Assembly (NCBI RefSeq): GCF_029227855.1 | Contig: NZ_CP074356.1 | Reading direction: 5' to 3' (one strand) | Source: Escherichia coli | GTDB taxonomy: Bacteria; Pseudomonadota; Gammaproteobacteria; Enterobacterales; Enterobacteriaceae | Length of the DNA: 64,000 nt | Part shown: one piece after another, positions 14,198-37,497 of the stretch | Position numbering within the stretch: the first letter of the stretch is position 1 | Layout: every line of letters begins with the position of its first letter | The notes under the pieces: generated by a model | Told to the model about the DNA's origin: nothing | Database searches by the model: none | The model's input: the letters and a program-made list of their open reading frames with translations, nothing else | Translations under genes and position numbers: made by a program

Positions 14198-14994
14198 AAC
14201 GAATTAACGCTCTGACGATTGCTGGTACTGATCCGAGTGGTGGTGCGGGGATTCAGGCCGATCTTAAAACCTTCTCGGCACTTGGCGCTTATGGTTGCTC
14301 AGTGATTACTGCACTGGTGGCGCAAAATACCCGTGGCGTACAGTCGGTGTATCGCATTGAGCCTGATTTTGTCGCCGCCCAGCTCGATTCGGTGTTCAGC
14401 GATGTGCGAATCGACACCACTAAAATCGGTATGTTGGCGGAAACCGATATTGTTGAAGCGGTGGCAGAACGGTTGCAACGTTATCAGATCCAAAACGTGG
14501 TACTCGACACCGTTATGCTGGCAAAAAGCGGCGACCCACTGCTTTCACCTTCGGCAGTTGCCACGCTACGCAGTCGATTATTGCCACAGGTTTCATTAAT
14601 AACGCCAAACTTGCCCGAAGCTGCCGCCTTGCTCGACGCGCCACACGCGCGCACCGAACAGGAAATGCTGGAACAAGGGCGATCGCTGTTGGCGATGGGC
14701 TGTGGCGCAGTGCTAATGAAAGGTGGTCATCTGGATGATGAGCAAAGCCCGGACTGGCTGTTTACTCGCGAGGGAGAACAACGATTTACTGCACCGCGCA
14801 TTATGACCAAAAACACCCACGGCACTGGTTGTACGCTCTCTGCGGCGTTGGCTGCACTACGCCCGCGCCATACAAACTGGGCTGACACCGTACAGGAGGC
14901 AAAAAGCTGGCTTTCATCGGCGTTAGCCCAGGCCGACACGCTGGAAGTTGGTCACGGTATTGGTCCGGTTCACCACTTCCACGCCTGGTGGTGA
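14194..14994 (+). CDS. thiD: Hydroxymethylpyrimidine / phosphomethylpyrimidine kinase
   Basis: 266-aa ORF, start overlaps the thiM stop (ATGA); PfkB-like ribokinase fold motifs. Confidence 0.9.
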
Positions 14995-15058
14995 GCACCG
15001 TACTATAGCTGCTTTGGTTATTGTCAGCCTTTGGCACTGACATTCAGGGATGAAACCA

Positions 15059-15877: not shown

Positions 15878-15928
15878 ATAAGAAGCAGTGATATACTCCC
15901 ACCAGACTCCCTGGCAGGAAAAAGACAA

Positions 15929-16675
15929 ATGGAACAAGCGCATACCCAGCTGATTGCCCAACTGAACGAACGTATTTTAGCGGCGGATAACACGCCGCTT
16001 TATATTAAGTTTGCCGAAACGGTAAAAAATGCCGTGCGCAGCGGGGTGCTGGAGCATGGCAATATTTTGCCCGGTGAGCGTGATTTAAGTCAGTTAACCG
16101 GCGTTTCGCGCATTACGGTGCGCAAGGCGATGCAGGCGCTGGAAGAAGAGGGCGTGGTGACGCGTTCGCGTGGTTACGGTACGCAGATCAACAACATCTT
16201 CGAATACTCGTTGAAAGAAGCGCGAGGTTTTTCTCAGCAGGTGGTATTGCGCGGGAAAAAGCCCGATACACTATGGGTTAACAAGCGTGTCGTGAAATGT
16301 CCCGAAGAAGTCGCGCAGCAGCTAGCGGTCGAAGCAGGAAGTAATGTCTTTTTGCTTAAGCGTATTCGCTATGTCGATGAAGAAGCGGTATCAATTGAGG
16401 AATCGTGGGTTCCTGCGCATTTAATTCATGATGTTGATGCCATCGGAATTTCTCTTTATGACTACTTCCGCAGCCAGCACATTTACCCACAACGTACGCG
16501 TTCCCGCGTTAGCGCCCGGATGCCGGATGCCGAGTTTCAGTCACATATTCAGTTAGATAGCAAAATACCGGTGCTGGTGATCAAGCAAGTGGCGCTTGAC
16601 CAACAGCAACAGCCTATTGAGTACAGCATCAGCCACTGTCGCAGCGATCTATACGTTTTTGTGTGCGAGGAGTAG
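15929..16675 (+). CDS. yegW: GntR-family transcriptional regulator (HTH plus UTRA-type effector domain)
   Basis: 248-aa ORF; N-terminal GntR HTH (..LPGERDLSQLTGVSRITVRKAMQAL..). Confidence 0.8.
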   Translation: MEQAHTQLIAQLNERILAADNTPLYIKFAETVKNAVRSGVLEHGNILPGERDLSQLTGVSRITVRKAMQALEEEGVVTRSRGYGTQINNIFEYSLKEARGFSQQVVLRGKKPDTLWVNKRVVKCPEEVAQQLAVEAGSNVFLLKRIRYVDEEAVSIEESWVPAHLIHDVDAIGISLYDYFRSQHIYPQRTRSRVSARMPDAEFQSHIQLDSKIPVLVIKQVALDQQQQPIEYSISHCRSDLYVFVCEE

Positions 16676-17614
16676 TTCCTCGCGCGTTGGCGCACAATCA
16701 CCGCCCCGATGCCCGACAACCCACGACGCCACTGCATTGCCCAGTAATACGGCATCCGCCAGTGGCAGACCAGAGGCTAGCCCGGCAAGTACGCCACCTG
16801 CATGACTGTCGCCCGCCCCAATGGTGTCTACTACTTGCGTTGGAAATGCCGGAATGCAGCCAGAAGCGTCGTTGCTGAAATACCATGCGCCCTCTTTATC
16901 GAGACGAATGATCAACGGCGCGGCAAATTTCTCCTGCCATTGCTTGCCAAGTGTTGTTATCTCTGCGGATAAAGCAAAACGTTCGGCGGCAATCTCAGCC
17001 TCCTGACGATTGAGTGACACTAAAGGTCGACAGGCCATGATCCGCGCCAGCAATGCATCCGGGATATCGCCAATACGTGGGCCAAAATCGATAAACGGCG
17101 TCACGTCTTGCAGCTTTTCCAGCCATTCCACTAATAATTCGCCGCAGGGCGAGGCCAGTTGATAACCGGAAAAATAGAGCAGGCTGCCAGGCGCAACGGT
17201 TAATCGCGCCAGCCACTGGCGATTCCACTGATTTTCCACACCGCTGAATGACATAAAAGTGCGTTCGCCATCCGGCTCAACCAGCGCCAGACACCAGCCG
17301 TTATCACCTTCGGCGTTATCGATCAGGCTGATTAAGCCCTCTTTTGCCATCCGGTTGCGAATAATCTCCGCCCACACGCCCTGACCGAGCGGCAAGGCGT
17401 TACCCGCTTCGATGCCGAGGCGCTTTAACGCCACGGCAATATTCAGTGCGCAGCCGCCAACGTTAACGCTCTGCTGTTTCAGTTCGATATCGCACCCACG
17501 CCAGGGGAGGGCATAAGCGTCGGCGATCACATCAATGACCGCCGCGCCGACGACCATCACCGGCTGACGCGTGGCTAATTCAGGCAGCAGCGTGTGTAAT
17601 CGAGCGCCGCTCAT
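16649..17614 (-). CDS. yegV: PfkB-family carbohydrate/nucleoside kinase
   Basis: 321-aa ORF with the PfkB signature GAGDSHAGGVLAGL; 3' end overlaps the convergent yegW 3' end. Confidence 0.8.
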   Translation of the reverse strand: MSGARLHTLLPELATRQPVMVVGAAVIDVIADAYALPWRGCDIELKQQSVNVGGCALNIAVALKRLGIEAGNALPLGQGVWAEIIRNRMAKEGLISLIDNAEGDNGWCLALVEPDGERTFMSFSGVENQWNRQWLARLTVAPGSLLYFSGYQLASPCGELLVEWLEKLQDVTPFIDFGPRIGDIPDALLARIMACRPLVSLNRQEAEIAAERFALSAEITTLGKQWQEKFAAPLIIRLDKEGAWYFSNDASGCIPAFPTQVVDTIGAGDSHAGGVLAGLASGLPLADAVLLGNAVASWVVGHRGGDCAPTREELLLAHKNV

Positions 17615-18615
17615 ATCGCCTCCCGTTGTTGGCGATACTTCGCCAGCGCCGTGGCATAGCGGTTGAAATCAAGCTGATTTACCGCATCCAGTTCCGCCTT
17701 TAACGCAGGAACGATAGCGTTAATGCCATGCAACGCGCCGCAGATTGCCGTCGCCATAGCACCGATGGTGTCTGTATCGCCGCCAAGGTTAGCGCAGAGG
17801 ACGGCGCAACGGTTCGGATCGGTTTGTGCCAGTTCAACCAGCGCAATGGCGCACGGAACGGACTCAATAGTGCTGGTACCTGCGCCAACGACCTGGTAAA
17901 GCTGTTCGCTGGCGGATTCGGTGCCGTCGGCATTGCGCACAATTTTCAGCGCAATCTCCAGGCGCGCCGCCAGTGAGGCGCTGAAGGTAGTGATGCGTTT
18001 TTGTTGAGCATGTCGCGCAATTGAAGGCAGTGAATCAACAATTGCTGACCAGCTTTCTCCGTCAATGGCACGAGAAATCGCCCATGCGATGACTACCGCC
18101 CCCGCAACCGCCAGATCGGATTTATGTGTCGGGCTGGAGGCCAGCGCCACATCATCAATAAAGGAATCAACATCACGCGCCGGAAGCAAACAACCTAATG
18201 GCGAGACGCGCATCGCTGCGCCGTTGGTCACGCCGTTATTTTCCAGTTCAGCAACGGGTTTACCGTCGCGAATGGCGTTAAGCGCAATCTTCGAGGTCGG
18301 ACCTAGTACGTTTTTGTTAAAGGCGTCGAAACGCAGCGCCCAGTCGAGAATATTACGCCCAATCAGATCCGGATCGATCTTGCCTTTACGTTCCAGTAAC
18401 GCATCCGCCAGACACAGCGCCATCGAGGTATCGTCGGTGAATTCGGCGCGGTTAAAATAACAGGCCGCGTTATTCTCCTTTGGTCCAGGCAGAAAACGGT
18501 CAATCCAGCCAAAGTGTGCTTTAACGCGGCTGCGTGGCCAAAGCTCGGAGGGCATCCCCATCGCATCCCCTAACGCCTGCCCATAAAGAGCACCGAGAAT
18601 ACGTTCTGTTTTCAT
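17611..18615 (-). CDS. yegU: ADP-ribosylglycohydrolase-family protein
   Basis: 334-aa ORF; DraG/ARH-like motifs (..GALYGQALGDAMGMP.., ..GGDTDTIGAMATAI..). Confidence 0.8.
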   Translation of the reverse strand: MKTERILGALYGQALGDAMGMPSELWPRSRVKAHFGWIDRFLPGPKENNAACYFNRAEFTDDTSMALCLADALLERKGKIDPDLIGRNILDWALRFDAFNKNVLGPTSKIALNAIRDGKPVAELENNGVTNGAAMRVSPLGCLLPARDVDSFIDDVALASSPTHKSDLAVAGAVVIAWAISRAIDGESWSAIVDSLPSIARHAQQKRITTFSASLAARLEIALKIVRNADGTESASEQLYQVVGAGTSTIESVPCAIALVELAQTDPNRCAVLCANLGGDTDTIGAMATAICGALHGINAIVPALKAELDAVNQLDFNRYATALAKYRQQREAI

Positions 18616-19889
18616 TTAACTTCCCCTTGTGTCAACGCAATATCGCGATCATCGACCTTGATAGCCGTAATTTCGTTGTCGGATTCGCGGAAAAAAATCA
18701 TGAACAGCACGGCGATAATGGCAATCATCACCGCGCCAAAAGTCCACATCCCGGACCAGTTGAAAGTCAGTCCGTTTACCGGTTCCTGATAAGCGAACAT
18801 CTTTTCCATCATCACACCGCCAAGACGATAGCCGAGCAAACTGCCGAAGCCCTGGCAGCAGAGTGTGATCAGCCCCTGCGCGGCGGTACGCATATGCACG
18901 GGGGCTTTTTTATCGACATAGATGTAAGCGGTAACGTAGTAAAAATCGTAACTTACGCCGTGCAGCAAAATGCCGAGGAACAGTAACGCGTAGGTGAAAT
19001 ATTCATCCGCACTACCGTAAATAAAGAAGCCATAGCGGATCGCAGCGGTGACCAGACCAAGTAATAATACCTTTTTGATACCAAAGCGTTTGGTGAAAAA
19101 CGGCAATGCCAGCATAAAGAAGATTTCAGAGAACTGGCCGAGCGTCATCCAGCCAGTGGCGTTTTTCATACCGACTTCGGTCAGATAACCGTTGGCAAAG
19201 ATGTAATAGAACGCCAGTGGCATCGCAAACAGGAATGAACAGAAGAAAAAGACGAGGAAGTTTTTATCGCGCAGCAGGATCAGCGCATCCAGGCCGAGCA
19301 TGACTTTAATGTCCATTTTGCCGGTGCTTTTTGGCGGCGTGTCGGGCAGGAAAAACGCAAACACACCGAGCAGAGCAGAACTTCCGGCGGTAATCAGCAG
19401 CGGGATGTTAGTCGGAGAGATATCGGCATAACCCAGCATTTGCGGCAAAAATCCACATGCAAGACCGGAGGCAATCCAGCCGATAGTGCCCATCACACGA
19501 ATGCGTGGGAAATCACGCTCCACATCCGGCACGTTGGCAAAAGCGATACTGTTAGTCAGCGCAATGGTCGGCATATAGGTTAGCGAGTAGGCCAGCAGTA
19601 ACGGGAAGAACCCGGCAAAAGTGGTCTGTTGCGCAGCGAAATACATCAGCGCCGCACCAGCGAACATCAATACCGCCAGCACTTTCTGCGCCGAGAAAAA
19701 GCGGTCAGTGATGGAGCCAACCAGAATTGGCGACAGGATCGCCGCAATGGCGGTACAGGCATACGACCAGCCAATTTCTCCGGCACTAAAACCGCTTTTA
19801 CTTAACCACAACCACAATGGCACAAACCACGCGCCCCAGATAAACCATTCAACAAACATCATGAACGACAGCTTTGCTGTTGTTTTCAT
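18612..19889 (-). CDS. yegT: Nucleoside:H+ symporter-family MFS transporter
   Basis: 425-aa polytopic membrane protein; start of yegU overlaps its stop. Confidence 0.8.
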   Translation of the reverse strand: MKTTAKLSFMMFVEWFIWGAWFVPLWLWLSKSGFSAGEIGWSYACTAIAAILSPILVGSITDRFFSAQKVLAVLMFAGAALMYFAAQQTTFAGFFPLLLAYSLTYMPTIALTNSIAFANVPDVERDFPRIRVMGTIGWIASGLACGFLPQMLGYADISPTNIPLLITAGSSALLGVFAFFLPDTPPKSTGKMDIKVMLGLDALILLRDKNFLVFFFCSFLFAMPLAFYYIFANGYLTEVGMKNATGWMTLGQFSEIFFMLALPFFTKRFGIKKVLLLGLVTAAIRYGFFIYGSADEYFTYALLFLGILLHGVSYDFYYVTAYIYVDKKAPVHMRTAAQGLITLCCQGFGSLLGYRLGGVMMEKMFAYQEPVNGLTFNWSGMWTFGAVMIAIIAVLFMIFFRESDNEITAIKVDDRDIALTQGEVK

Positions 19890-20145
19890 CTTTTAATTCC
19901 TTCATGACAGGTAATGTAAGGTACGCGATGACAATACCATTTAATAATACCTTTTAAATACCTTTGCGGTGAAAACTTGACCGCGGTAACATTTTTTCTG
20001 ATGAATCGAGCCAACAGAAAACGCTGAAAAAACATCCAAAAGATGGAAAAACTCGCCTGTAACGATCAGGATTATGATTGCCCGCAAAAGGCGGGCCAGG
20101 ACAATCCATAGCCGATATCCAATCGGAATTTACGGGAGCATAGTA

Positions 20146-21198
20146 ATGACAGATATTGCGCAGTTGCTTGGCAAAGACGCCGACAACCTTTTACAGCACC
20201 GTTGTATGACTATTCCTTCTGACCAGCTTTATCTCCCCGGACATGACTACGTAGACCGCGTGATGATTGACAATAATCGCCCGCCAGCGGTGTTACGTAA
20301 TATGCAGACGTTGTACAACACTGGGCGTCTGGCTGGCACAGGATATCTTTCTATTCTGCCCGTTGACCAGGGCGTTGAGCACTCTGCCGGAGCTTCATTT
20401 GCCGCTAACCCGCTCTACTTTGACCCGAAAAACATTGTTGAACTGGCGATCGAAGCGGGCTGTAACTGTGTGGCGTCAACTTACGGCGTGCTGGCGTCGG
20501 TATCGCGGCGTTACGCGCATCGCATTCCATTCCTCGTCAAACTTAATCACAACGAGACGCTAAGTTACCCGAATACATACGATCAAACGCTGTATGCCAG
20601 CGTGGAGCAGGCGTTCAACATGGGCGCGGTGGCGGTTGGTGCGACTATCTATTTTGGCTCGGAAGAGTCACGTCGCCAGATTGAAGAAATTTCTGCGGCT
20701 TTTGAACGTGCGCACGAGCTGGGCATGGTGACAGTGCTGTGGGCCTATTTGCGTAACTCCGCCTTTAAGAAAGATGGCGTTGATTACCATGTTTCCGCCG
20801 ACCTGACTGGTCAGGCGAACCATCTGGCGGCAACCATAGGTGCAGATATCGTCAAACAAAAAATGGCTGAAAATAACGGCGGCTATAAAGCGATTAATTA
20901 CGGTTATACCGACGATCGCGTGTACAGCAAGTTGACCAGCGAAAACCCGATTGATCTGGTGCGTTATCAGTTAGCTAACTGCTATATGGGCCGCGCAGGG
21001 TTGATAAACTCCGGCGGTGCTGCAGGCGGTGAAACTGACCTCAGCGATGCAGTGCGTACTGCGGTTATCAACAAACGCGCTGGCGGAATGGGGCTGATTC
21101 TTGGACGTAAGGCGTTCAAGAAATCGATGGCTGACGGCGTGAAACTGATTAACGCCGTGCAGGACGTTTATCTCGATAGCAAAATTACTATCGCCTGA
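20146..21198 (+). CDS. fbaB: Fructose-bisphosphate aldolase class I
   Basis: ORF 20074..21198; start placed at [14 protein letters not shown] (350 aa). Confidence 0.9.
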
Positions 21199-21282
21199 TA
21201 CGCCTTATACGAACAGCACTACCCCGTATGACGGAAAAGGCGTTTACGTCGCATCCGGCATAAAAACACGCGCACTTTGCTA

Positions 21283-21312
21283 CGGCTTCCCTATCGGGAG
21301 GCCGTTTTTTTG
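21283..21312 (+). terminator. Probable terminator after fbaB
   Basis: Imperfect hairpin cggcttccc / gggaggccg followed by ttttttt. Confidence 0.4.
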
Positions 21313-21371
21313 CCTGTCATTCTGATTAATTTTCGAATTGTCGTTTTTGTGATCGTTATCTCGACATTTAA

Positions 21372-23571
<2,200 letters not shown>

Positions 23572-23580
23572 GGACGGTAT

Positions 23581-24033
23581 ATGACTAACCTGTTTGTTCG
23601 TAGCGGAATTTCTTTTGTCGATCGTAGCGAAGTTTTAACCCATATCGGTAATGAGATGCTCGCGAAAGGTGTGGTTCATGATACCTGGCCACAGGCATTA
23701 ATTGCCAGAGAAGCAGAATTCCCTACCGGGATAATGCTTGAGCAGCACGCCATTGCAATACCGCATTGTGAGGCGATTCATGCTAAGTCGTCAGCCATTT
23801 ATCTGTTAAGGCCAACAAATAAAGTTCATTTTCAGCAAGCGGATGATGATAACGACGTGGCGGTATCGTTGGTTATTGCGTTAATTGTGGAAAATCCGCA
23901 GCAGCAATTGAAACTTTTACGCTGTTTATTTGGCAAGTTACAACAGCCCGAGATCGTCGAGACACTAATCACTCTTCATGAAACCCAGTTAAAGGAATAC
24001 TTCACAAAGTATGTTTTAGATTCAGACGAATAA
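23581..24033 (+). CDS. gatA: PTS galactitol-specific EIIA component
   Basis: 150-aa ORF in the gat operon. Confidence 0.9.
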   Translation: MTNLFVRSGISFVDRSEVLTHIGNEMLAKGVVHDTWPQALIAREAEFPTGIMLEQHAIAIPHCEAIHAKSSAIYLLRPTNKVHFQQADDDNDVAVSLVIALIVENPQQQLKLLRCLFGKLQQPEIVETLITLHETQLKEYFTKYVLDSDE

Positions 24034-24063
24034 ATCCCTCTGTAACAATAAAAAGGACTATTT

Positions 24064-24348
24064 ATGAAACGCAAGATTATTGTCGCTTGCGGAGGCGCGG
24101 TTGCGACCTCTACGATGGCGGCGGAAGAAATTAAAGAGTTGTGTCAGAGTCATAATATTCCTGTTGAATTAATCCAGTGTCGGGTTAATGAAATAGAGAC
24201 CTATATGGATGGTGTGCATTTGATATGTACTACCGCCAAAGTTGACCGTAGTTTTGGCGATATTCCGTTAGTTCACGGCATGCCTTTTGTTTCTGGTGTC
24301 GGTATCGAAGCATTACAAAATAAAATTCTGACTATCTTACAGGGGTGA
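24064..24348 (+). CDS. gatB: PTS galactitol-specific EIIB component
   Basis: 94-aa ORF with N-terminal active-site Cys ([16 protein letters not shown]). Confidence 0.9.
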
Positions 24349-24351
24349 CCT

Positions 24352-25707
24352 ATGTTTTCAGAAGTCATGCGTTATATTCTCGACCTCGGCCCTACGGTGA
24401 TGCTGCCGATTGTCATCATTATTTTTTCTAAAATATTAGGCATGAAGGCAGGCGATTGCTTTAAAGCAGGTCTGCATATCGGGATTGGCTTTGTTGGCAT
24501 TGGCCTTGTGATTGGCTTAATGCTGGATTCCATTGGTCCGGCGGCGAAAGCGATGGCGGAAAATTTCGACCTGAATCTGCATGTGGTCGATGTCGGCTGG
24601 CCGGGCTCTTCACCAATGACCTGGGCGTCGCAAATTGCGCTGGTGGCGATTCCGATTGCGATTCTGGTTAACGTGGCGATGTTACTGACCCGTATGACGC
24701 GGGTGGTAAATGTTGATATCTGGAATATCTGGCATATGACCTTCACCGGCGCGTTGCTGCATCTGGCAACCGGTTCATGGATGATAGGGATGGCGGGTGT
24801 GGTAATTCACGCGGCGTTTGTTTATAAGCTCGGCGACTGGTTTGCCCGCGATACCCGAAATTTCTTTGAGCTGGAAGGCATTGCTATTCCGCACGGTACG
24901 TCGGCGTATCTGGGGCCAATTGCGGTGCTGGTCGATGCTATCATCGAGAAAATCCCAGGCGTTAACCGAATTAAATTTAGTGCCGATGATATTCAGCGCA
25001 AGTTTGGCCCATTTGGCGAACCTGTCACCGTGGGTTTTGTGATGGGGCTGATTATCGGCATCCTCGCGGGTTACGATGTCAAAGGTGTATTGCAGCTGGC
25101 GGTAAAGACGGCGGCAGTTATGCTGCTGATGCCGCGGGTGATTAAACCCATCATGGATGGTTTAACGCCCATCGCTAAGCAGGCCCGTAGTCGTTTACAG
25201 GCGAAGTTCGGCGGTCAGGAGTTCCTGATTTGCCTTGATCCGGCGTTGCTGCTGGGGCATACGGCGGTGGTATCGGCAAGCCTGATTTTTATCCCTCTCA
25301 CCATTTTAATTGCTGTTTGTGTTCCGGGTAATCAGGTGCTGCCGTTTGGCGATCTTGCAACTATCGGCTTCTTCGTGGCGATGGCGGTCGCGGTGCATCG
25401 TGGAAATCTGTTCCGCACCTTAATCTCGGGTGTCATCATTATGAGCATCACCCTGTGGATCGCGACGCAAACTATTGTTTTGCACACCCAACTGGCGGCT
25501 AATGCTGGGGCGTTAAAAGCCGGGGGTATGGTGGCTTCAATGGATCAGGGCGGTTCTCCCATTACCTGGTTACTGATTCAGGTTTTCTCCCCGCAAAATA
25601 TTCCCGGTTTCATTATTATCGGTGCCATTTATCTTACCGGTATTTTCATGACCTGGCGTAGAGCGCGCGGCTTTATTAAACAAGAGAAAGCCGTTCTCGC
25701 AGAATAA
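24352..25707 (+). CDS. gatC: PTS galactitol-specific EIIC permease
   Basis: 451-aa polytopic membrane protein. Confidence 0.9.
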   Translation: MFSEVMRYILDLGPTVMLPIVIIIFSKILGMKAGDCFKAGLHIGIGFVGIGLVIGLMLDSIGPAAKAMAENFDLNLHVVDVGWPGSSPMTWASQIALVAIPIAILVNVAMLLTRMTRVVNVDIWNIWHMTFTGALLHLATGSWMIGMAGVVIHAAFVYKLGDWFARDTRNFFELEGIAIPHGTSAYLGPIAVLVDAIIEKIPGVNRIKFSADDIQRKFGPFGEPVTVGFVMGLIIGILAGYDVKGVLQLAVKTAAVMLLMPRVIKPIMDGLTPIAKQARSRLQAKFGGQEFLICLDPALLLGHTAVVSASLIFIPLTILIAVCVPGNQVLPFGDLATIGFFVAMAVAVHRGNLFRTLISGVIIMSITLWIATQTIVLHTQLAANAGALKAGGMVASMDQGGSPITWLLIQVFSPQNIPGFIIIGAIYLTGIFMTWRRARGFIKQEKAVLAE

Positions 25708-25754
25708 TTTTTACCTGAGGGGGAGGTTATCCCCCTTAATAATCAGGAGTTTTT

Positions 25755-26795
25755 ATGAAATCAGTGGTGAATGATACTGATGGTATCGTGCGCGTTGCAG
25801 AAAGCGTCATTCCTGAAATTAAACATCAGGATGAGGTGCGGGTAAAAATTGCCAGCTCGGGATTATGTGGTTCCGATTTACCCAGGATATTTAAAAATGG
25901 TGCACATTATTATCCAATAACGTTAGGCCATGAATTTAGCGGCTATATTGATGCGGTGGGATCCGGTGTTGATGATTTACACCCTGGCGATGCGGTTGCC
26001 TGTGTGCCGTTATTACCCTGTTTTACTTGTCCAGAGTGTCTAAAAGGGTTTTATTCCCAGTGCGCAAAATATGATTTTATTGGCTCGCGGCGTGATGGTG
26101 GATTTGCTGAATATATTGTCGTTAAGCGAAAAAATGTCTTTGCTCTACCCACGGATATGTCTATTGAGGATGGGGCTTTTATTGAGCCGATTACCGTTGG
26201 CCTGCATGCTTTTCATTTAGCGCAAGGTTGTGAGAATAAAAACGTTATTATTATTGGTGCCGGAACCATTGGCCTGCTGGCAATTCAGTGCGCTGTCGCG
26301 CTGGGAGCAAAGAGTGTGACGGCTATCGACATTAGCTCAGAAAAACTGGCACTGGCAAAATCTTTCGGTGCGATGCAAACATTTAACAGCCTTGAAATGA
26401 GCGCGCCGCAAATGCAGGGCGTTTTACGCGAGCTGCGCTTTAATCAGCTTATCCTCGAGACGGCTGGTGTCCCGCAAACCGTCGAACTGGCGGTAGAGAT
26501 TGCCGGGCCTCATGCCCAGCTGGCGCTGGTGGGCACGTTGCATCAGGATCTGCATTTAACATCGACAACGTTTGGCAAAATATTACGTAAAGAGCTGACG
26601 GTTATCGGCAGCTGGATGAACTACTCCAGCCCTTGGCCGGGGCAGGAGTGGGAAACGGCGAGCCGGTTGCTGACAGAACGTAAGTTAAGCCTGGAGCCAT
26701 TAATCGCTCACCGTGGAAGCTTTGAAAGCTTCACCCAGGCGGTGCGTGACATCGCTCGTAATGCTATGCCGGGCAAAGTGTTGCTCATTCCCTGA
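25755..26795 (+). CDS. gatD: Galactitol-1-phosphate 5-dehydrogenase (Zn-dependent MDR)
   Basis: 346-aa ORF; GHEFSG Zn-ADH motif and GAGTIGL Rossmann motif. Confidence 0.9.
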   Translation: MKSVVNDTDGIVRVAESVIPEIKHQDEVRVKIASSGLCGSDLPRIFKNGAHYYPITLGHEFSGYIDAVGSGVDDLHPGDAVACVPLLPCFTCPECLKGFYSQCAKYDFIGSRRDGGFAEYIVVKRKNVFALPTDMSIEDGAFIEPITVGLHAFHLAQGCENKNVIIIGAGTIGLLAIQCAVALGAKSVTAIDISSEKLALAKSFGAMQTFNSLEMSAPQMQGVLRELRFNQLILETAGVPQTVELAVEIAGPHAQLALVGTLHQDLHLTSTTFGKILRKELTVIGSWMNYSSPWPGQEWETASRLLTERKLSLEPLIAHRGSFESFTQAVRDIARNAMPGKVLLIP

Positions 26796-26900
26796 AACCG
26801 CGGGCCAGCGTGATGCTGGCCCGGTATTGTGCAAAACAGATCATTCACCAATGGTCCCCCTTCGTTTACACTAGCCACAATTGAATATGGGTAAATGACG

Positions 26901-27674
26901 ATGAATTCATTCGAGCGAAGGAATAAGATCATCCAATTAGTGAATGAACAGGGAACCGTGCTTGTTCAGGATCTGGCGGGAGTATTTGCTGCCTCGGAAG
27001 CGACAATCCGTGCCGATTTGCGCTTTCTCGAACAAAAAGGCGTGGTTACGCGCTTTCATGGCGGTGCGGCGAAAATAATGTCCGGTAATAGTGAAACCGA
27101 GACCCAGGAAGTCGGGTTTAAAGAGCGATTTCAGCTCGCCAGCGCGCCAAAAAACAGAATAGCGCAGGCGGCAGTCAAAATGATCCACGAAGGGATGACC
27201 GTTATTCTCGACAGCGGAAGTACGACAATGCTTATCGCCGAAGGATTAATGACCGCCAAAAATATCACGGTGATTACCAACAGTCTCCCGGCAGCATTTG
27301 CCCTTTCCGAAAATAAAGACATTACTCTGGTCGTCTGTGGTGGGACCGTCCGCCATAAAACACGCTCGATGCATGGTTCCATTGCCGAGCGTTCATTGCA
27401 GGATATTAATGCCGATTTAATGTTTGTCGGTGCTGATGGTATTGATGCGGTTAATGGTATTACGACCTTTAATGAAGGTTATTCGATTAGCGGGGCGATG
27501 GTTACAGCCGCAAATAAAGTGATTGCCGTTCTCGATTCATCGAAATTTAATCGTCGCGGTTTTAATCAGGTACTGCCAATCGAAAAAATTGACATTATTA
27601 TTACCGATGATGCCGTGTCAGAGGTGGATAAACTGGCATTGCAGAAGACACGGGTGAAATTAATTACGGTGTAG
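26901..27674 (+). CDS. gatR: DeoR-family repressor of the galactitol operon (uninterrupted)
   Basis: ORF 26895..27674; start placed at MNSFERRNKIIQL (alternative start two codons upstream); DeoR HTH plus sugar-binding domain; reading frame is continuous. Confidence 0.85.
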   Translation: MNSFERRNKIIQLVNEQGTVLVQDLAGVFAASEATIRADLRFLEQKGVVTRFHGGAAKIMSGNSETETQEVGFKERFQLASAPKNRIAQAAVKMIHEGMTVILDSGSTTMLIAEGLMTAKNITVITNSLPAAFALSENKDITLVVCGGTVRHKTRSMHGSIAERSLQDINADLMFVGADGIDAVNGITTFNEGYSISGAMVTAANKVIAVLDSSKFNRRGFNQVLPIEKIDIIITDDAVSEVDKLALQKTRVKLITV

Positions 27675-27685
27675 TATTGCTCTGT

Positions 27686-27719
27686 ATGCCGGATAAAGTT
27701 TTTACACCGCATCCGGCAT
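27686..27719. repeat. REP-like palindromic element / terminator
   Basis: atgccggat (27686-27694) ... atccggcat (27711-27719). Confidence 0.4.
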
Positions 27720-27755
27720 TACGGATTCTCCCTGGTTCAAGAGAGAATAGTGTGA

Positions 27756-28655
27756 TTAACGCAACAATGGGCAATCTGGTGGTAATCGACAACGCAACGC
27801 CGCCGGAAGTATTTCAATATGAAAGTTTTGTCCGCTCAACGGTTCGCCATCAAGATTAAAAGTGATTTCGTGTGGGGCTTGTATATCAAACCACGACGAA
27901 GCGCCTTCGATAATATTCGGGTTATCTTCGTCAGATTTTAATGTTGATACGAGAGCCGGAAGAATTTCATCGCCGGTAAAAATGCGCAGTTGCAGCAAGC
28001 CATCGTTAATTAACGCGTTCGGGCACAATTGCTGACCGCCACCGGCCTGACGCCCGTTACCAATACCAATGACCAGGGCGTCACCTTGCCAGTGAAAGTT
28101 TTCACCGCGGATCTCACAACGGTCCGGTTGCAGAGTATCCATGCGCATTAAGCCATGAATGATGTAAGAGACGCCACCCAGCGCGGCTTTTAATTTTTCC
28201 GGCGTTTCTGTGGTAATACGCGTCCCAAATCCGCCTGTCGCCATATTAATAAAACAGGTTTGTTTGTTGACCTGCGCCATATCTATCGCAATGGCGTCAC
28301 CGGCAATTGCCAGTTTCAGCGCCTTATCCAGTGCCTCAGGAATCCTTACACTGGTGGCAAAATCATTGGCGGTTCCTAATGGCAAAATTCCTAGCGCGGG
28401 TATGTCATCCCCCTCACACTGAATCAACGCCGTAGAAACTTCATTAATGGTGCCATCGCCACCACCGGCAATCACCGTTGCGACGCCCAACTTCCGGGCC
28501 TCCTCTACATATCGTGCGGCATCGCCTTTCTCCCAGGTGACCCGCACATGGATCGTCATTCCTTCCTCACGCAACAGCATAATTGCTTCGCGCAATGGTA
28601 AATTGTCAGTACTTTTGCCATTAAGAATCAGTAAGCTGGCGGGAAATTCTGCCAT
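27756..28655 (-). CDS. yegS: Lipid kinase YegS (diacylglycerol kinase catalytic domain family)
   Basis: 299-aa ORF with DAGK-type nucleotide-binding pattern (..[13 protein letters not shown]..). Confidence 0.85.
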
Positions 28656-29069
28656 GATCGTATGTGCCTTTATGATTGGTCTGTAGATAGTGTATAGCAG
28701 AAAAGAAAAGGTGGAGTCAGAACAGGATGAAAGTCGGAGGATAAAAAATCAGTTCAAGTATGGAGGATTCAGTGGTTACCACCAGGAGCTTGCAATGGGG
28801 ACAGTGAATGTTAACGGTAGCCACCGGTAAATTTCAAAAAAGAGCATATACCTAATATTCAACTAAACAGTGGCATCTTCAATATACTATTAAAAATATA
28901 TTAACCCCCCCATGGGGTTACCCGGAAGGGCCTCCGTGTATGTAATTCCTACTTATGTAGGAAATGTTGTACAGAACATTTATTATAATCCTATTCAATT
29001 ATAATAATCATGCCATTATTATATTTAAACACCAGAGCGTGTCGTTGGTATTTAATGGGGGAAGGTGAG

Positions 29070-29387
29070 ATGAAAAAGATAGCTGCTATATCATTAATTA
29101 GTATTTTTCTTATGTCTGGTTGTGCTGTGCATAATGATGAAACAAGTATCGGTAAATTTGGTCTTGCATATAAAAGTAATATTCAGCGTAAACTCGATAA
29201 CCAATACTACACCGAAGCCGAAGCTTCTTTAGCCAGGGGCAGAATTTCTGGTGCAGAAAATATAGTAAAAAATGATGCAGCTCATTTCTGTGTTACTCAG
29301 GGCAAAAAAATGCAGATAGTTGACCTGAAGACAGAAGGTGCAGGATTACATGGCGTCGCTCGTCTGACATTCAAATGTGGAGAGTGA
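29070..29387 (+). CDS. yegR: Small lipoprotein-like protein YegR
   Basis: ORF 29010..29387; start placed at MKKIAAISLISIFLMSGC (105 aa; lipobox LMSGC). Confidence 0.7.
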   Translation: MKKIAAISLISIFLMSGCAVHNDETSIGKFGLAYKSNIQRKLDNQYYTEAEASLARGRISGAENIVKNDAAHFCVTQGKKMQIVDLKTEGAGLHGVARLTFKCGE

Positions 29388-29557
29388 GAATATTTTTTGG
29401 TAAGCGTCAAACATGCGCGTTCTGATTGTGCGTAGCCGGAACCTGTACGAGCACGATGCCGTTAAGTGAAAGGCATCGTGCTATGAAGGGGGATTCTATC
29501 GATGTGGTCAATGGAAGACGGTCACCTGGGATCAATCCGTCTCTATGGTTTATGCAC

Positions 29558-29584
29558 AAAAAATAAGCCCGTGTAAGGGAGATT
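29558..29584. other. Phage P2-type attachment core (attB) overlapping the CyaR 3' end; appears unoccupied
   Basis: Sequence aaaaaataagcccgtgtaagggagatt equals the P2 att core as recalled from memory; no ogr/P2-like genes flank it here. Confidence 0.45.
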
Positions 29585-29644
29585 ACACAGGCTAAGGAGG
29601 TGGTTCCTGGTACAGCTAGCATTTTATGGGTTATGTTTTTCAGC
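29558..29644 (-). ncRNA. cyaR: CyaR (RyeE) Hfq-dependent small RNA
   Basis: Minus strand reads GCUGAAAAACAUAACCCAUAAAAUGCUAGCUGUACCAGGAACCACCUCCUUAGCCUGUGUAAUCUCCCUUACACGGGCUUAUUUUUU, matching the CyaR sequence as recalled, including the terminal hairpin and U-tail. Confidence 0.8.
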
Positions 29645-29728
29645 GAAACAGATGATAACCTTAATAAATGCAGCTGTATGTGATCGGTTTCTAAGAATTT
29701 TCCATCCGGGAAAAATAATCGAAATTAA

Positions 29729-31090
29729 TCACTTACCGTGGGGGTTACGCGTGGTTTCCCCGGAGAAATTACGCATCAGCAGCGCGTAATTTAGCTCAAG
29801 ATCCTGCGGCACCGGGATCCACACAGTATAACCATCGCCCGGTGCGACCGGCATTGCTTCGCCTTTGGCGTTTTCCATGTGCTCAAGGGTAAAGTTAATG
29901 TTCCCTTGCGGCGTCATCAGCTCAAGGCTGTCGCCAACGGAGAATTTATTTTTCACCGCTACCGCCGCGAGGTCGCCCTTGCGCTCACTGGTAAACTCAC
30001 CAACAAACTGCTGGCGGTCAGAAACTGAATAACCGTATTCGTAGTTCTGATAATCGTCGTGAGTATGACGACGCAGGAAACCTTCGGTATAGCCACGATG
30101 CGCCAGACCTTCCAGGGTTTCCAGCAGGCTGGTATCGAATGGTTTTCCCGCAGCTGCGTCATCGATAGCTTTACGGTAAACCTGCGCGGTGCGTGCGCAA
30201 TAGTAGAAAGATTTGGTACGGCCTTCGATTTTCAGCGAATGCACGCCCATTTTGGTCAGGCGTTCAACATGGGCGATGGCGCGCAGATCTTTCGAGTTCA
30301 TGATGTAAGTGCCGTGCTCATCTTCAAACGCGGTCATATACTCGCCCGGACGCTGGGCTTCTTCGATCATAAACACTTTGTCGGTTGGTGCGCCGATCCC
30401 CAGCGTCGGTTCAACGTTTTGCACCGGAATCGGTTCGTACTTGTGTACGATGTTGCCGACGTCATCTTCTTTCCCTTCCTGGACGTTATACTCCCAGCGG
30501 CAGGCGTTGGTGCAGGTGCCCTGGTTCGGGTCGCGCTTGTTGATATAGCCAGAGAGCAGGCAGCGACCGGAGTAGGCCATGCACAGCGCGCCGTGAACGA
30601 AGATTTCGATCTCCATATCTGGCACCTGATTGCGGATCTCTTCAATCTCTTCCAGTGACAGTTCGCGAGAGAGGATCACGCGGGTCAGACCCATTTGCTG
30701 CCAGAATTTCACCGTCGCCCAGTTCACGGCGTTAGCCTGTACTGAGAGATGGATCGGCATTTCAGGGAAGTGCTCGCGCACCAGCATAATCAGCCCTGGA
30801 TCAGACATAATCAGCGCATCCGGCCCCATTTCCACCACCGGTTTCAGGTCACGGATAAAGGTTTTCAGCTTGGCGTTGTGCGGTGCAATGTTGACCACGA
30901 CATAAAACTTTTTCCCCAGCGCGTGGGCTTCATTGATGCCGAGCTGAAGATTTTCGTGGTTGAATTCGTTGTTGCGCACACGCAGGGAGTAACGCGGCTG
31001 GCCCGCATAAACAGCATCTGCGCCATAAGCGAAAGCGTAACGCATATTTTTCAGCGTTCCCGCCGGGGAAAGGAGTTCCGGTTTAAACAT
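29729..31090 (-). CDS. yegQ: Peptidase U32-family protein (tRNA hydroxylation protein TrhP / YegQ)
   Basis: 453-aa ORF with U32-family conserved Cys-rich region. Confidence 0.85.
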   Translation of the reverse strand: MFKPELLSPAGTLKNMRYAFAYGADAVYAGQPRYSLRVRNNEFNHENLQLGINEAHALGKKFYVVVNIAPHNAKLKTFIRDLKPVVEMGPDALIMSDPGLIMLVREHFPEMPIHLSVQANAVNWATVKFWQQMGLTRVILSRELSLEEIEEIRNQVPDMEIEIFVHGALCMAYSGRCLLSGYINKRDPNQGTCTNACRWEYNVQEGKEDDVGNIVHKYEPIPVQNVEPTLGIGAPTDKVFMIEEAQRPGEYMTAFEDEHGTYIMNSKDLRAIAHVERLTKMGVHSLKIEGRTKSFYYCARTAQVYRKAIDDAAAGKPFDTSLLETLEGLAHRGYTEGFLRRHTHDDYQNYEYGYSVSDRQQFVGEFTSERKGDLAAVAVKNKFSVGDSLELMTPQGNINFTLEHMENAKGEAMPVAPGDGYTVWIPVPQDLELNYALLMRNFSGETTRNPHGK

Positions 31091-31291
31091 AATTCTCTCG
31101 TTCTGATGACAGGTCAGATCCGCTTCACCTGATGAAGCGGCCAGGGGAGTGCCCCCACTTTAAGGGCGGGCATTGTAGCGCAATCGTCGGGGTTGGCTCC
31201 AGTGTAATTGTGATGAGCTTTTCGATGCCTGGCGTACAATTGACATCAGAATTGAGTATATTTACGACCGTGAATGTTAAGGAGTTAAAAC

Positions 31292-31897
31292 ATGTGGATG
31301 TTAAAGAAGGGATTCACTCTGGCTCTGTTGGTTCTGTTTTCTCTGCCCGCTACTGCCGGTCTTTCGCTGGAGGAGACTGCTCGCAAGGTGATTATCGGCT
31401 TTCAGCAAGAAGATGCTCAATTAATCAACTCATTAATTGATAAAAAAACGGGGTTGTATGTTCTTTTCCACCGTGGCGCTTCGATGGATGTCGAAAATTT
31501 TAAGTCAATTGATTTTAAAACGCCTGTTCCCGAGTATTTGCTGTGGCCTTCGGCAGGGGAGCATATTCCGCGAGATGAAGAGTTTGATAAGAAAACTATC
31601 CCGGAATTTGACTGTGAACGTGGCTGGAATAAGCACGGATATTTTATTAGCAGCAGCGATACACACCATAAAGTCAGCCGTAATTTGGTCTTCACGCAGA
31701 TGTTTGGTTCACCGCGAAACACTATTTCTGATGCGCAGATTGCCGCAGCGCGTCGAATGGAGTACGGGGCCGTGCGTGTGGTCGCTGCGCCAGAAAAGGG
31801 TAGCGACGGACTGGTATTTTATTTAAGTCAACTTTACGGTTATGACACTGACTGGTATCTGACGGTGGTGGATCAGATTGGTGATTGTGGGGCGTGA
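31292..31897 (+). CDS. Hypothetical secreted protein (signal peptide), unknown function
   Basis: 201-aa ORF; N-terminus MWMLKKGFTLALLVLFSLPATAGLS resembles a Sec signal peptide; no family motif recognised. Lies in a segment I do not recall at this position in K-12. Confidence 0.55.
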   Translation: MWMLKKGFTLALLVLFSLPATAGLSLEETARKVIIGFQQEDAQLINSLIDKKTGLYVLFHRGASMDVENFKSIDFKTPVPEYLLWPSAGEHIPRDEEFDKKTIPEFDCERGWNKHGYFISSSDTHHKVSRNLVFTQMFGSPRNTISDAQIAAARRMEYGAVRVVAAPEKGSDGLVFYLSQLYGYDTDWYLTVVDQIGDCGA

Positions 31898-31927
31898 TAA
31901 AGATTTATCCGCCCGCAAGCAGTGATG

Positions 31928-33328
31928 TTATTTGAAGGGAATGTAACCCCATAATCTGTTGTGAAGTTCCGGATTGCGGGTAAAAAGCGCCTGAAGTTGC
32001 TGACGCTGGGGAGCATTCGGTTGAATGCCTGAAAGATTGAAATTGCGTTGCCATATTGCGAGCTGTTTATCTGCAAATTCTTCAGTTAGCTTGTGTTGCG
32101 ATTGCAGAAGAAGAATTAAACCGTCCCATTTGTTCAAGTTAGGATACAACCGACAATATGCGCAAGCATGTTTAACTGACGGTGCGTTTTCCAGCAACTG
32201 ACGTATTTCCTCGAACGTGAGCGGAACTCGACACCATACACAGATGTTAACCATAAATCGAAGCCCGGAGGCGTCCGGGTTAGCCAGTGTGGTCAGAATA
32301 ATCCCTTTGACACCACCATCAGGATTGGCTTTCGCAAGAATATACATAGCGGCTAATCGCAGTGGGAATACATCCTGTAATAATCCCCATTCTGCCAGTT
32401 TTAAAATATTGGCATCATGAATGGAGTCCAGCCCGTATAAAGCTGCCCGGCGCTGTGAGGGAGTATATTCAGTCGAGGTGACAACATGACGCCAGAATTG
32501 CGCAACATCCATGACGTCATTAAGCATGTTTTTAGCGCGTAGACGGATCAACATATTGTTATCCAGCAGTAATGCGCCGTACAACTCCGGAGGAATTTCT
32601 ATAGCTCGGTCAGTAAGGCTAAACAACGTTGCTTGTCGAATACGCGGCCAGCGGTCTTTTAACAGACGAGTTAATACCGCTTCGCTTAACGGTAATTGTT
32701 GACGCAGCCAGTGGGTGACCGCCAGCATTCGTAACCCTTCGTCGGGCTGCTTGAGTATTAAAAGCAGCGAAGATTCATCATTAAAGTAGCCATATTCAAT
32801 CAGCGTTTGTAATACTGCGCGGGAGAGTTTTTTATCAGGGCAAGTAAGCCAACACGTTAATTGTGGACGGCTATTTTCTGTCAATAAAAATCTAAGTATC
32901 TCGTCTACAAATGCACGGTGATCGTAACGCTGGCATTGGAGAAGGTTACGTATCATGGGAAGATTAACGGCAAATGCCGCTGCATTCTTACCCTTCTTTA
33001 AATGACGTAACGCTATGGTTGCAGCAAGGCGAACCTCTTTTACCCAGTCATTAGCTGCAAGTAATAATTCTTCTATAGCTGCAACATCCTCTTTTTGTCC
33101 CAGACATTGCACGGCCTTTTCTCGTATATATCCATTGTGGTGATAGGTAAGCTGGCAAAGAACCAGAGTATTGTTGAGATCACAATCATGCGCTATATAA
33201 TTGCCTGGATCGGCTATCATCGCCTGGAGTTGTTGCTGGATAAGAAATAATTCACAGTCAACAGAATTATTCATTTCGACGTTAAACAAAACCCTGCGTG
33301 TAAATAATGTACGCAATCCTTTGAGCAT
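31928..33328 (-). CDS. Hypothetical HEAT/ARM-like repeat protein, unknown function
   Basis: 466-aa ORF; alpha-helical repeats resembling PBS-lyase HEAT repeats (..REKAVQCLGQKEDVAAIEELLLAANDWVKEVRLAATIALRHL..); convergent with the 201-aa gene. Confidence 0.55.
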   Translation of the reverse strand: MLKGLRTLFTRRVLFNVEMNNSVDCELFLIQQQLQAMIADPGNYIAHDCDLNNTLVLCQLTYHHNGYIREKAVQCLGQKEDVAAIEELLLAANDWVKEVRLAATIALRHLKKGKNAAAFAVNLPMIRNLLQCQRYDHRAFVDEILRFLLTENSRPQLTCWLTCPDKKLSRAVLQTLIEYGYFNDESSLLLILKQPDEGLRMLAVTHWLRQQLPLSEAVLTRLLKDRWPRIRQATLFSLTDRAIEIPPELYGALLLDNNMLIRLRAKNMLNDVMDVAQFWRHVVTSTEYTPSQRRAALYGLDSIHDANILKLAEWGLLQDVFPLRLAAMYILAKANPDGGVKGIILTTLANPDASGLRFMVNICVWCRVPLTFEEIRQLLENAPSVKHACAYCRLYPNLNKWDGLILLLQSQHKLTEEFADKQLAIWQRNFNLSGIQPNAPQRQQLQALFTRNPELHNRLWGYIPFK

Positions 33329-33410
33329 AATTTTCCTTATCAGTTATGAGGAGAAAACTCATTTCATGATTAATAATTTCTTGAGGGATAGTAACTCTGT
33401 GATGAGAGAA

Positions 33411-33445
33411 AATAAAGCCGGACGCCAACAACACGCGCCCGGCAT
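33411..33445 (-). terminator. Probable rho-independent terminator of yegP
   Basis: Minus-strand hairpin gccgggcgc ... gcgtccggc followed by tttatttt. Confidence 0.4.
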
Positions 33446-33450
33446 CGTAA

Positions 33451-33783
33451 TTACGTATTGTCTTTTACCGTCTGGCTTGTGCCATTGGCTTTAACGGAGG
33501 CAATTCCGGTTTCACGAGATTGCGCGGTGGCGTACATTTGGCTGGAGCCGATAATTTGATGATTGGCGGCTTTCAGATTGAAATAGAATTTGCCGTTGCT
33601 TGCCGTTTTTTTCTCATAGCGTTCTTCTTGCGGGCTGTTGCTACGCACCGACGCGATACCCTTTTCCGCAGAGGCTTTTGAGGTATACAGCTCGCTGGTG
33701 AGGATAGTCTCACCATTGCCCGCTTTTAGCACAAACCGGAACTGATTATCACTGCTCTTACTGAGTTCAAACCAACCAGCCAT
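33451..33783 (-). CDS. yegP: UPF0339-family protein YegP (tandem DUF1508 repeats)
   Basis: ORF 33451..33822; start placed at MAGWFELSK (110 aa); two internal repeats (..FRFVLKAGNGETI.. / ..FYFNLKAANHQII..). Confidence 0.8.
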   Translation of the reverse strand: MAGWFELSKSSDNQFRFVLKAGNGETILTSELYTSKASAEKGIASVRSNSPQEERYEKKTASNGKFYFNLKAANHQIIGSSQMYATAQSRETGIASVKANGTSQTVKDNT

Positions 33784-33962
33784 AATGACTCCTTGATTGA
33801 AATTGCGTATCGAAAACAGCATCTAAAGGTACTGTTTGCCAATTAAAGTATGAGCGATTTTCTGGTGCCTGCCAGGGCGGAGAGATCATGTCAGTTTGCT
33901 GACCATGCGTGGGATAATGTTGCCGGATCTGGTCTGAAGGCCATCTCCGGCAGGTAAAAATG

Positions 33963-34685
33963 TTAAACGATGCGGCAGGCGTCGGCTTCCCAGCGGTAAC
34001 CGACGCCGTAAACGGCACGGATAAAGGACTGTTCGGCGTCGAGAGATTCCAGCTTGCGACGCAGGTTTTTAATGTGGCTGTCGATGGTGCGGTCGGTTAC
34101 TACGCGGTAGTCGTCATAAAGATGATTGAGCAATTGCTCGCGGGAGAACACTTTTCCTGGTTCATGAGAGAGCGTTTTCAGCAGACGAAATTCCGCAGGC
34201 GTCAGGTCAAGCATTTTTCCGCGCCATGAAGCCTGAAAACGACCTTCGTCGATAATCAACGGGCTTTCAGCATCCTGTTGCTGCAACTCACGCTGCGGTT
34301 TGCAACGGCGCAAAATGGTTTTGACGCGCGCTACCACTTCCCGTGGGCTGTACGGCTTGCAGATATAATCATCTGCGCCAATTTCCAGCCCCAGCAGGCG
34401 GTCGATCTCTTCGATTTTTGCTGTCACCATCACGATCGGAATGTCAGAAAAACGACGAATTTCCCGACACAGCGTCAGGCCATCGGTGCCAGGGAGCATC
34501 AGATCCAGCAGGATCAGATCCGGTGGTGTCTGGCGCACATACGGCAGTACCTGATCGCCGTGGCTAATCAACGTTGGCGCATAGCTCGCAGCACGCAGAT
34601 AATCAATGAGTAACTGCCCCAGCTTCGGTTCATCTTCCACGATCAAAATACGCGGTGTGTTTTCGTCGATTGGTAACTCGGTCAT
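33963..34685 (-). CDS. baeR: Envelope-stress response regulator BaeR (OmpR family)
   Basis: 240-aa ORF; receiver domain (..ILIVEDE.., ..[10 protein letters not shown]..) plus winged-helix output domain. Confidence 0.9.
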
Positions 34686-36085
34686 ACTTCTCTCTGTAAA
34701 TCCCGTTCCAGCGGTAACTCTACTGTAATGCTTACCCCGCCAAAAGGCGAATGGGCAGCAATAATGCGGCCATTATGGGCTTCAACAATGTTCAGGCAAA
34801 TCGCCAGCCCCAGCCCGGAACCGCCGCTGGCGCGGTTGCGGGAGCCTTCGGCGCGATAAAAACGTTCAAACAATTTTTGTAGCTGATCGTCACTGACGCC
34901 CGGCGCGCTGTCGGCAAAGGTCAGTCGCACCGTTTTGTCGTGCTGCTCGGCAGAGATTTTCAGGCTGCCGCCGCTGTCAGTGTAGCGCAGGCTGTTTTCA
35001 AGTAAGTTATTGAATAACTGCATTAAACGGTCGCGATCGCCAAATACGGTAATACTGTCTGGCAGGGAGAATTGCAGTTTCAGGCCACGGCTGGCAAATC
35101 GTTCGCGAAATGCGCCGCCCGCTACTTCCAGCAGTGGGATCAAATCTACCGGTGCTTTTTGATAGGCGAGAGCGCCTTCATCAGACATCGACAACTGATG
35201 GAGATCGTCAACCAGTTTGGTCAGTGTACCGACCTCCGCCTGTAAAGACGCCACCGTCTCCGGCGTGAATTTACGCACGCCATCCTGAATGGCTTCCAGT
35301 TCACCGCGCAGCACCGCTAATGGCGTACGCAGTTCGTGAGAAATATCGGCCATAAAATCGCGGCGCATTTGCTGGTTTTTCTCCAGCGTGCTGGCGAGCT
35401 GGTTGAAGTCCTGCGCCAGTTTGCCCAGTTCATCTTCACTGGTGGGCGTCACGCGGGTTGTGAAATCGCCCGCCGCCAGTTTGTGCGTGCCGTCCACCAG
35501 CCGTTTGACCGGGGCCAACAGACCACGCGCCAGCAGAAAGGTGGCGAGCGCCGCGAGTAACGTTGCCAGGGCGACAATCAGCCAGCTGGTTTGCCGCTGT
35601 TGTTTATCGAAATTGATATCAGTATTGCGGGTCAGTCGCTCAACAGGGGAGGCAATCACCGCACCCACTTCCGCACCGTTGACCAGAATGGGTCGCCGTG
35701 TACCGTCAGGTGGAATCGGCGCTCGCGGACCAACCAGCACCTTGTTGTTTTGATCAACCACCCAGAACTGAGTACGCCAGCCGTGCGGCGGCATACCCGG
35801 GCCGGGTTTATCTTCCGAATTATCGTGTTCAAATGAACGCAGGATCTGAAAGACAAAGCGATCGTTGTTGCGCAGGAAGCGCCAGTTACCATGCTGCGCA
35901 TACTGCTCGCCAAGCGCATCACTTAACAGCTGTAATCGCTGTTCATTGCCGTGTTTGATGTAATCAATAAAGCCACGCTCAAAACTGATACGCACCGCCC
36001 AGTGCATACTGATCAGCAAGACAATGCAGGTGGCGAAAATCGCCAGAAACAGTTTGCCGGTAATACCAGGTCGCCAGAACTTCAT
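34682..36085 (-). CDS. baeS: Sensor histidine kinase BaeS
   Basis: 467-aa ORF; HAMP domain, H-box ISHELRTPL and ATPase G-boxes; stop overlaps the baeR start. Confidence 0.9.
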
Positions 36086-37497
36086 TGCGCGCTCCTTTTT
36101 CGCCGCGAAATAGCTACATTTTGATGCGTATCGTTCGGCACTCTGGCAAAGATGAACGCCGGAAGGGCGATGATAAACGCCATGCTAAACCAGGTGTACA
36201 TAAAGACGGTTTGTGTGGTGCCGCTGTCGACGCTGACATGCTGCGAACCAAAAAGCCCCAGCAACAGCCCGGCGATGGTGACGCCGATACTCATCGACAA
36301 TTGCATAATCATCGACAGCAGGCTGTTTCCGCTGCTCGCCAGATTGTCCGGGAGATCTTTCAGCGTCAGGGTGTTCATGGAGGAGAAACGGGTCGAGTTG
36401 ACCATCCCTTGTAAAAACAGGACGAACGGCAAAACGTAGTACCAGCCCAGCAGAGCAGTGGTCATAAACAACAGGGTGACCAGCGACAGACCCAGCGTGG
36501 TCGCCACCAGTACCCGACGGTAGCCAAAGCGATTCACCACCTGTACCATAATTCGCTTCATTCCCATGCTGCCAAGCACCATCGGGATCATCATCAGTCC
36601 GGCATGAAACGGTGAGAAGCCAAGGCCAATTTGCAGGAAAACCGGTGTCATAAAGGGCAACATGCCACTGCCAATACGTCCGGCAAAGCTCCCCGCCAGG
36701 CCCAGCGAAAAGGTACGAGTGCGGAACAGTTTCAGACTGAACAGGGCGCGGTTGTTATTTCTGGCGTGCAGCAGATAAAGCACCAGTGCCACCACGCCAA
36801 CTGCGACCAGGCCAGCAATCGCCAGCGGCGATAAACCTGTACCTTTACTGCCGTCCAGTGCCAGGGTTAATACCGCCATGCCAACCGCCAGCAATAAAAA
36901 GCCGGAAAGATCAAAGCGCCGCGTCTGCATGGTGTAGTTCGGCATTAACATCAGTGTGGCGATCGCGCCAATAATCCCCACCGGAATGTTGATCAAAAAG
37001 ATCCAGTGCCACGACGCGTATTCCACCAGCAGACCGCCGAGCGCCGGACCGAGCAGCGGACCGACCTGACCGGGTAACGTGACAAAGGTCATCGCCGCCA
37101 TATATTGCTCGCGCGGTACGATTTTCATCACCGTCAACCTGCCGACCGGCACCATCATCGCGCCGCCAACGCCCTGTAACGCGCGTGCCAGCAACAGTTC
37201 GTTCAGCGTGCCGGAAAGCGCGCAAAACAGTGAACCGAGAGTAAACAGCACGATGGCGGTAAAGAAAATATTGCGCACGCCGACTTTGTCCGCCAGCCAG
37301 CCGCTGGCGGGCAGCATCACCGCCACGGTCAGTACATAAGAGACAATGACCATGTGCATATGCAACGGACTTTCCCCGAGGCTTTGCGCCATTGAGGGAA
37401 GCGCGGTGTTAACGATGGTGGTGTCCAGCGACTGCATAAAGAAGCCGAAAGCCACAATCCACAATTGCCAGCGGGTGCTGTCGGGAAGATCTGTCAT
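36082..37497 (-). CDS. mdtD: MFS efflux transporter MdtD (IceT)
   Basis: 471-aa 14-TMS-like MFS protein; coupled to baeS. Confidence 0.9.

Follow-up and report, generated by a model that had tools for sequence, protein, structure and literature searches.

The gatR gene in this window, by which we mean the whole 64-kb stretch of Escherichia coli DNA that was analysed, is very probably an ordinary functional wild-type allele for the galactitol repressor, a DeoR-family protein that controls the PTS and catabolic operon gatYZABCD. It occupies a single open reading frame of 259 codons on the plus strand (26895..27674), in which the open reading frame list gives 257 codons from a second in-frame ATG at 26901, and the raw sequence across 26895..27674 contains neither internal stops nor frameshifts. 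The gene, its parts and its presumed target are as follows:

26901..27674, plus strand: gatR coding sequence, 257 aa plus stop; the alternative ATG at 26895 gives 259 aa
26916..27074, plus strand: HTH_DeoR (PF08220), N-terminal DNA-binding domain; Pfam, aa 8-60 of the 259-aa form, E 1.3e-16
27147..27608, plus strand: DeoRC (PF00455), C-terminal sensor domain (effector-binding, oligomerisation); Pfam, aa 85-238 of the 259-aa form, E 2.5e-51
27197..27199, plus strand: GAC triplet, the IS3E target site in K-12, unoccupied here; annotation and junction alignment
26796..26900, plus strand: gatD-gatR spacer, 105 nt, 100% identical to K-12 and E300010
21426..26795, plus strand: gatYZABCD, presumed GatR target, all genes full length

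A sequence-only reading of this DNA had described a DeoR-family gene at 26901-27674 as a single frame of 257-259 codons downstream of gatD, and both its coordinates and its description proved exact against the open reading frame list and Pfam, with the gene lying 105 nt after gatD (25755..26795) and careful re-translation, the check for a frameshift that it had proposed, finding none. The ATG at 26901 is the better-placed start because a GGG at 26889-26891 lies 9 nt ahead of it and only 3 nt ahead of the ATG at 26895, and PGAP likewise places the coding sequence at the match of 26901..27674 in E300010 and JNEC-KY178, whose gatR regions are identical to that of the window. Both the 257-aa and the 259-aa forms are public, each in at least 1000 contigs, under the name 'DeoR family galactitol utilization operon repressor'. 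The two Pfam domains score 60.5 bits against a cut-off of 21 (HTH_DeoR) and 174.2 bits against a cut-off of 31.8 (DeoRC), and their joint presence indicates that gatR is a real gene and no chance open reading frame.

With a DeoR-type winged helix-turn-helix, a DeoRC domain and a length of ~250 aa, GatR has the features of the DeoR/GlpR family. The top NCBIfam models over the full-length protein are AgaR (NF040755, 232.9 bits) and SrlR (NF007753, 226.3 bits), and assignment of GatR as an equivalog of either was rejected since these scores fall below the respective curated cut-offs of 260 and 350, making GatR a paralogue of both. AgaR, the repressor of the N-acetylgalactosamine/galactosamine operon, and SrlR, the glucitol repressor, have the same two-domain architecture as GatR. 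Among solved structures, the one relative by sequence is the C-domain of the deoxyribose operon repressor DeoR (7l6l, E 1.9e-11). By analogy with the family, GatR would come off DNA on binding a phosphorylated sugar or polyol as its effector.

The same gene is broken in K-12. In the MG1655 RefSeq record gatR (b4498) is annotated as a pseudogene in two fragments around IS3E (insE5/insF5), a 1258-bp element inserted behind gatR nt 299 (base 27199 in window coordinates), where it duplicated the 3-bp target GAC. In alignment, the K-12 fragments of 299 and 475 nt add up to 774 nt, equal to the window gene, in which this site is unoccupied, and the disrupted gene encodes 110 aa, comprising 100 GatR residues and 10 IS-derived residues, with the sensor domain gone. 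That gat expression is constitutive in K-12 through gatR disruption is stated in several publications (PMC5850726; bioRxiv 10.64898/2026.01.05.697630; PMC4072538; PMC9189660; PMC10878103), all of which trace it to Nobelmann and Lengeler 1996, and the statement in the sequence-only reading that an IS element splits K-12 gatR and leaves the operon constitutive is thus borne out by the MG1655 annotation, the junction alignment and the literature. Alignment with the K-12 fragments, the other check it had suggested, shows that the two are the same gene: once IS3E is excised in silico, the K-12 protein is 100% identical to that of the window, and all 15 nucleotide differences are synonymous.

Evidence that this protein is a working repressor comes from other strains. 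GatR of E. coli HS is 100% identical to the window protein over 257 aa (shared accession WP_001295426.1), and the HS or EC3132-type gene has the same position between gatD and yegS, the window gatR departing from that of HS by 15 synonymous nucleotide differences. Sousa et al. 2017 exchanged the pseudogene of MG1655 for HS gatR, amplified from yegS and gatD primers, and the operon became regulated again (PMC5850726); when the regulated MG1655 derivative was placed in mice, constitutive mutants re-evolved through new IS insertions in gatR (PMC5850726). CRISPRi of gatR gave a strong fitness signal in LF82 and CFT073 that was absent in MG1655 (bioRxiv 10.64898/2026.01.05.697630). Between the CFT073 and window genes 28 codons differ, 27 of them synonymously and one giving the single residue difference between the two proteins (I196V), a pattern that indicates purifying selection on gatR. 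Since the window protein is the HS allele that restored regulation, the repressor corresponds to a validated functional allele. This identity supports the earlier expectation that regulation should be intact here, and nothing suggests, at the level of sequence, altered gatR expression in the window strain; we consider it highly likely that the gat operon of this strain is repressible.

Among E. coli strains an uninterrupted gatR is the usual condition, from which K-12 departs. The gatR region was found in 5109 of 5426 complete E. coli genomes and was in one piece in 4756 of these (~93%), while the exact K-12 IS3E::gatR junction occurred in 349 genomes, which accounts for essentially all of the ~353 split cases. 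Three junction genomes sampled from the listing (ER1709, RP437 and MG1655) all belong to K-12 or to laboratory lines derived from it. The contrast with K-12 drawn in the sequence-only reading therefore stands, but its framing was overstated, as it is the uninterrupted gene that is wild type.

The surrounding locus is conserved. The window carries yegT, fbaB, gatY, gatZ, gatA, gatB, gatC, gatD, gatR and yegS in the K-12 order but on the opposite strand, with yegS convergent and directly after gatR, and the synteny fbaB-gatYZABCD-gatR-yegS is kept in K-12, HS, CFT073, E300010 and JNEC-KY178. Position after gatD, together with identity to the K-12 fragments and to the tested HS allele, identifies the window gene as the GatR orthologue. 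The six structural genes contain no internal stops and encode proteins of the same lengths as in E. coli HS (GatY 284, GatZ 420, GatA 150, GatB 94, GatC 451 and GatD 346 aa), and the gat genes of JNEC-KY178 bear no PGAP pseudogene flags. As a separate observation, gatC (24352..25707) is intact in the window (451 aa), while MG1655 RefSeq has a gatC pseudogene besides gatR.

Over 1..48700 the window is 99.99% identical to E. coli JNEC-KY178 (NZ_AP045174.1; a clinical isolate from Japan), with 4 mismatches and 1 gap. Conservation is uneven along the locus: gatR by itself matches E300010 at 100% and 391 genomes at 99% or better, and the whole 8.8 kb of 19900..28700 reaches at least 99% identity in only 16 genomes. 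Over these 8.8 kb E300010 is 99.2% identical, with a differing gatY promoter region. The pattern is consistent with a mosaic gat region (19900..28700) and would fit recombination within the locus.

Several further features of the window lie outside the gat genes. Between trhP and yegP lie two inserted genes (31292..33328) that are absent from K-12, HS and E300010; one encodes a 201-aa protein without Pfam or PADLOC matches (31292..31897, plus strand) and the other a 466-aa HEAT-repeat protein (31928..33328, minus strand; Pfam HEAT_2 5e-8, weak PADLOC HEAT-ARM_XIII 8.7e-7). The insert at this spot in CFT073 is another one, of four genes (hypothetical, DUF4034, DUF1266 and PcfJ), which marks trhP-yegP as a variable hotspot. 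The CyaR sRNA (29561..29646, minus strand) lies directly next to yegR (region 29388..29728), a site at which K-12 holds the P2-remnant cryptic prophage PR-X (ogrK, yegZ), absent from the window. An IS200C transposase gene and STnc490 RNA (2200..2323, minus strand) adjoin metG at ~1733..2323, where HS is without an IS. A type I toxin-antitoxin array of three tandem SIB antitoxin RNAs and three ibs toxin genes occupies 45213..46018, the equivalent of which is annotated with two ibs genes in HS and CFT073. A JUMPstart RNA (Rfam RF01707, 57 bits) at 61045..61083, near the right end of the window, suggests the start of a polysaccharide cluster, probably colanic acid or O-antigen.

Upstream of the operon, a promoter scan and inspection of the sequence yielded the following predicted elements:

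21306..21425, plus strand: gatY regulatory region; promoter scan and sequence, elements predicted
21348-21363: CRP-like site TGTGA-N6-TCTCG, inferred from the sequence
21361-21366, plus strand: predicted -35 TCGACA, overlapping the CRP-like site; promoter scan
21385-21390, plus strand: predicted -10 CATTAT; promoter scan
21339-21346 (plus strand) and 21408-21415 (minus strand): candidate GatR half-sites TGTCGTTT, inverted octamers; inverted 8-mer search

No definition of GatR operators was found in the sources read, and the pair of TGTCGTTT octamers around the gatY promoter is the best operator lead, this and the CRP site being putative assignments. The octamer occurs five times in the 64-kb window against 2.6 expected, a count that 17 of 100 shuffles reach and that is therefore not significant; what is suggestive is that two of the copies flank the gatY promoter, a grouping noticed post hoc. 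The octamers are not wholly invariant among Escherichia species. Searching the window with WRMMTTTCRTTTYRTTTYNYTTKK, which we take to be the AgaR operator consensus, returned 0 matches at up to 3 mismatches, giving no support for an AgaR-like operator. A composite 17-mer operator pattern matched itself and one poor site only, and a contig scan with a degenerate GatY N-terminus pattern, which was too specific, recovered only three Escherichia loci, whose promoters are too alike to footprint. It is conceivable, although we think it unlikely, that the inverted octamers, which bracket the predicted CRP site, -35, -10 and gatY transcription start, are the GatR operators, that repression works by bridging or looping between them, and that a change at 21335-21336 then tunes repression strength in this lineage.

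That change is one of several in the promoter. Compared with K-12 and HS, the 120 nt upstream of gatY in the window lack 2 bp and carry several SNPs, the -35 reads TCGACA in place of TCGATA, and most of the differences from K-12, including the deletion and the -35 change, are common to CFT073. The T at 21407 is common to the window and E. whittamii. Only the two adjacent substitutions at 21335-21336 are specific to the allele group of the window among the Escherichia alleles compared: the window reads TTTTCGAATTG, where TTTTCATATTG or TTTTCACATTG is found in K-12, HS, E300010, CFT073, E. whittamii and Escherichia sp. E1V33, and E. coli E69 carries TTTTCATTTTG. In the window the substitutions create a TTCGAA palindrome beside the upstream TGTCGTTT octamer. 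The 227-nt fbaB-gatY spacer is a minority allele, present at 99% identity or more in 63 of 5426 genomes, and its exact sequence recurs in unrelated isolates. The fbaB-gatY spacer (21199..21305) also varies in length by strain, with the fbaB terminator hairpin at 21282..21305; K-12 and HS have a 77-nt REP-like block downstream of fbaB and CFT073 has IS200C in the spacer, whereas the window has neither.

This minority allele raises the question of whether an intact gatR could act on an operator or promoter of altered strength, leaving the operon leaky or super-repressed. The deletion, the SNPs and the -35 substitution within 120 nt of gatY would favour such an effect, as would the position of the group-specific 21335-21336 change 3 nt from a candidate half-site, but most of these differences are common to CFT073, where GatR clearly represses, the exact promoter allele is carried by dozens of unrelated natural isolates, and the candidate half-sites themselves are unchanged. 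We therefore regard altered regulation as improbable. Still less credible is an operon that is constitutive as in K-12 because gatR, its frame intact, is silent or its product inactive. What speaks for it lies in the 105-nt gatD-gatR spacer, where a consensus promoter and terminator scan flagged neither a gatR promoter nor a gatD terminator, and where a GC-rich hairpin lacking a T-run follows gatD (26801..26823; fold -21.1 kcal/mol, z = -2.1). This spacer is, however, identical to that of K-12, the protein is the HS allele whose yegS-gatD amplicon restored regulation, and the exclusively synonymous divergence points to selection on the gene, so that we give a silent or inactive gatR very little credence; the gatR promoter is presumably located elsewhere in the spacer, outside the hairpin.

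The sequence-only reading had itself named an intact K-12 gatR as the finding that would remove the contrast between the two strains. The two-piece MG1655 RefSeq pseudogene around IS3E, with its junction sequences verified, and the recurrence of the identical junction in 349 genomes leave this with virtually no chance of being right.

The reading that we prefer is thus a functional wild-type gatR, and from it we infer repression in the window strain, the operator positions and the identity of the inducer along the following lines. The N-terminal helix-turn-helix of GatR would most likely contact operators around the CRP-dependent promoter of gatY, and binding of a galactitol-derived inducer to the DeoRC domain would release GatR from DNA. 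By family analogy the inducer may be a sugar phosphate, galactitol-1-phosphate for example. Galactitol would accordingly switch on an operon that is otherwise off in the window strain, whereas in K-12, where the IS3E insertion cuts GatR at residue 100, expression is constitutive.

An intact gatR in wild-type E. coli is already known biology, and the main value of this analysis is a correct annotation: the window strain has a wild-type, presumably inducible galactitol system, and the constitutive gat expression of K-12 is a peculiarity of a laboratory lineage. This peculiarity shapes the outcomes of gut-colonisation evolution experiments, in which loss of gat was the first adaptive step of MG1655 (PMC5850726, PMC5094792). 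For gut or carbon-source work with the window strain or its relatives, HS or CFT073, and not K-12, should serve as the gat model.
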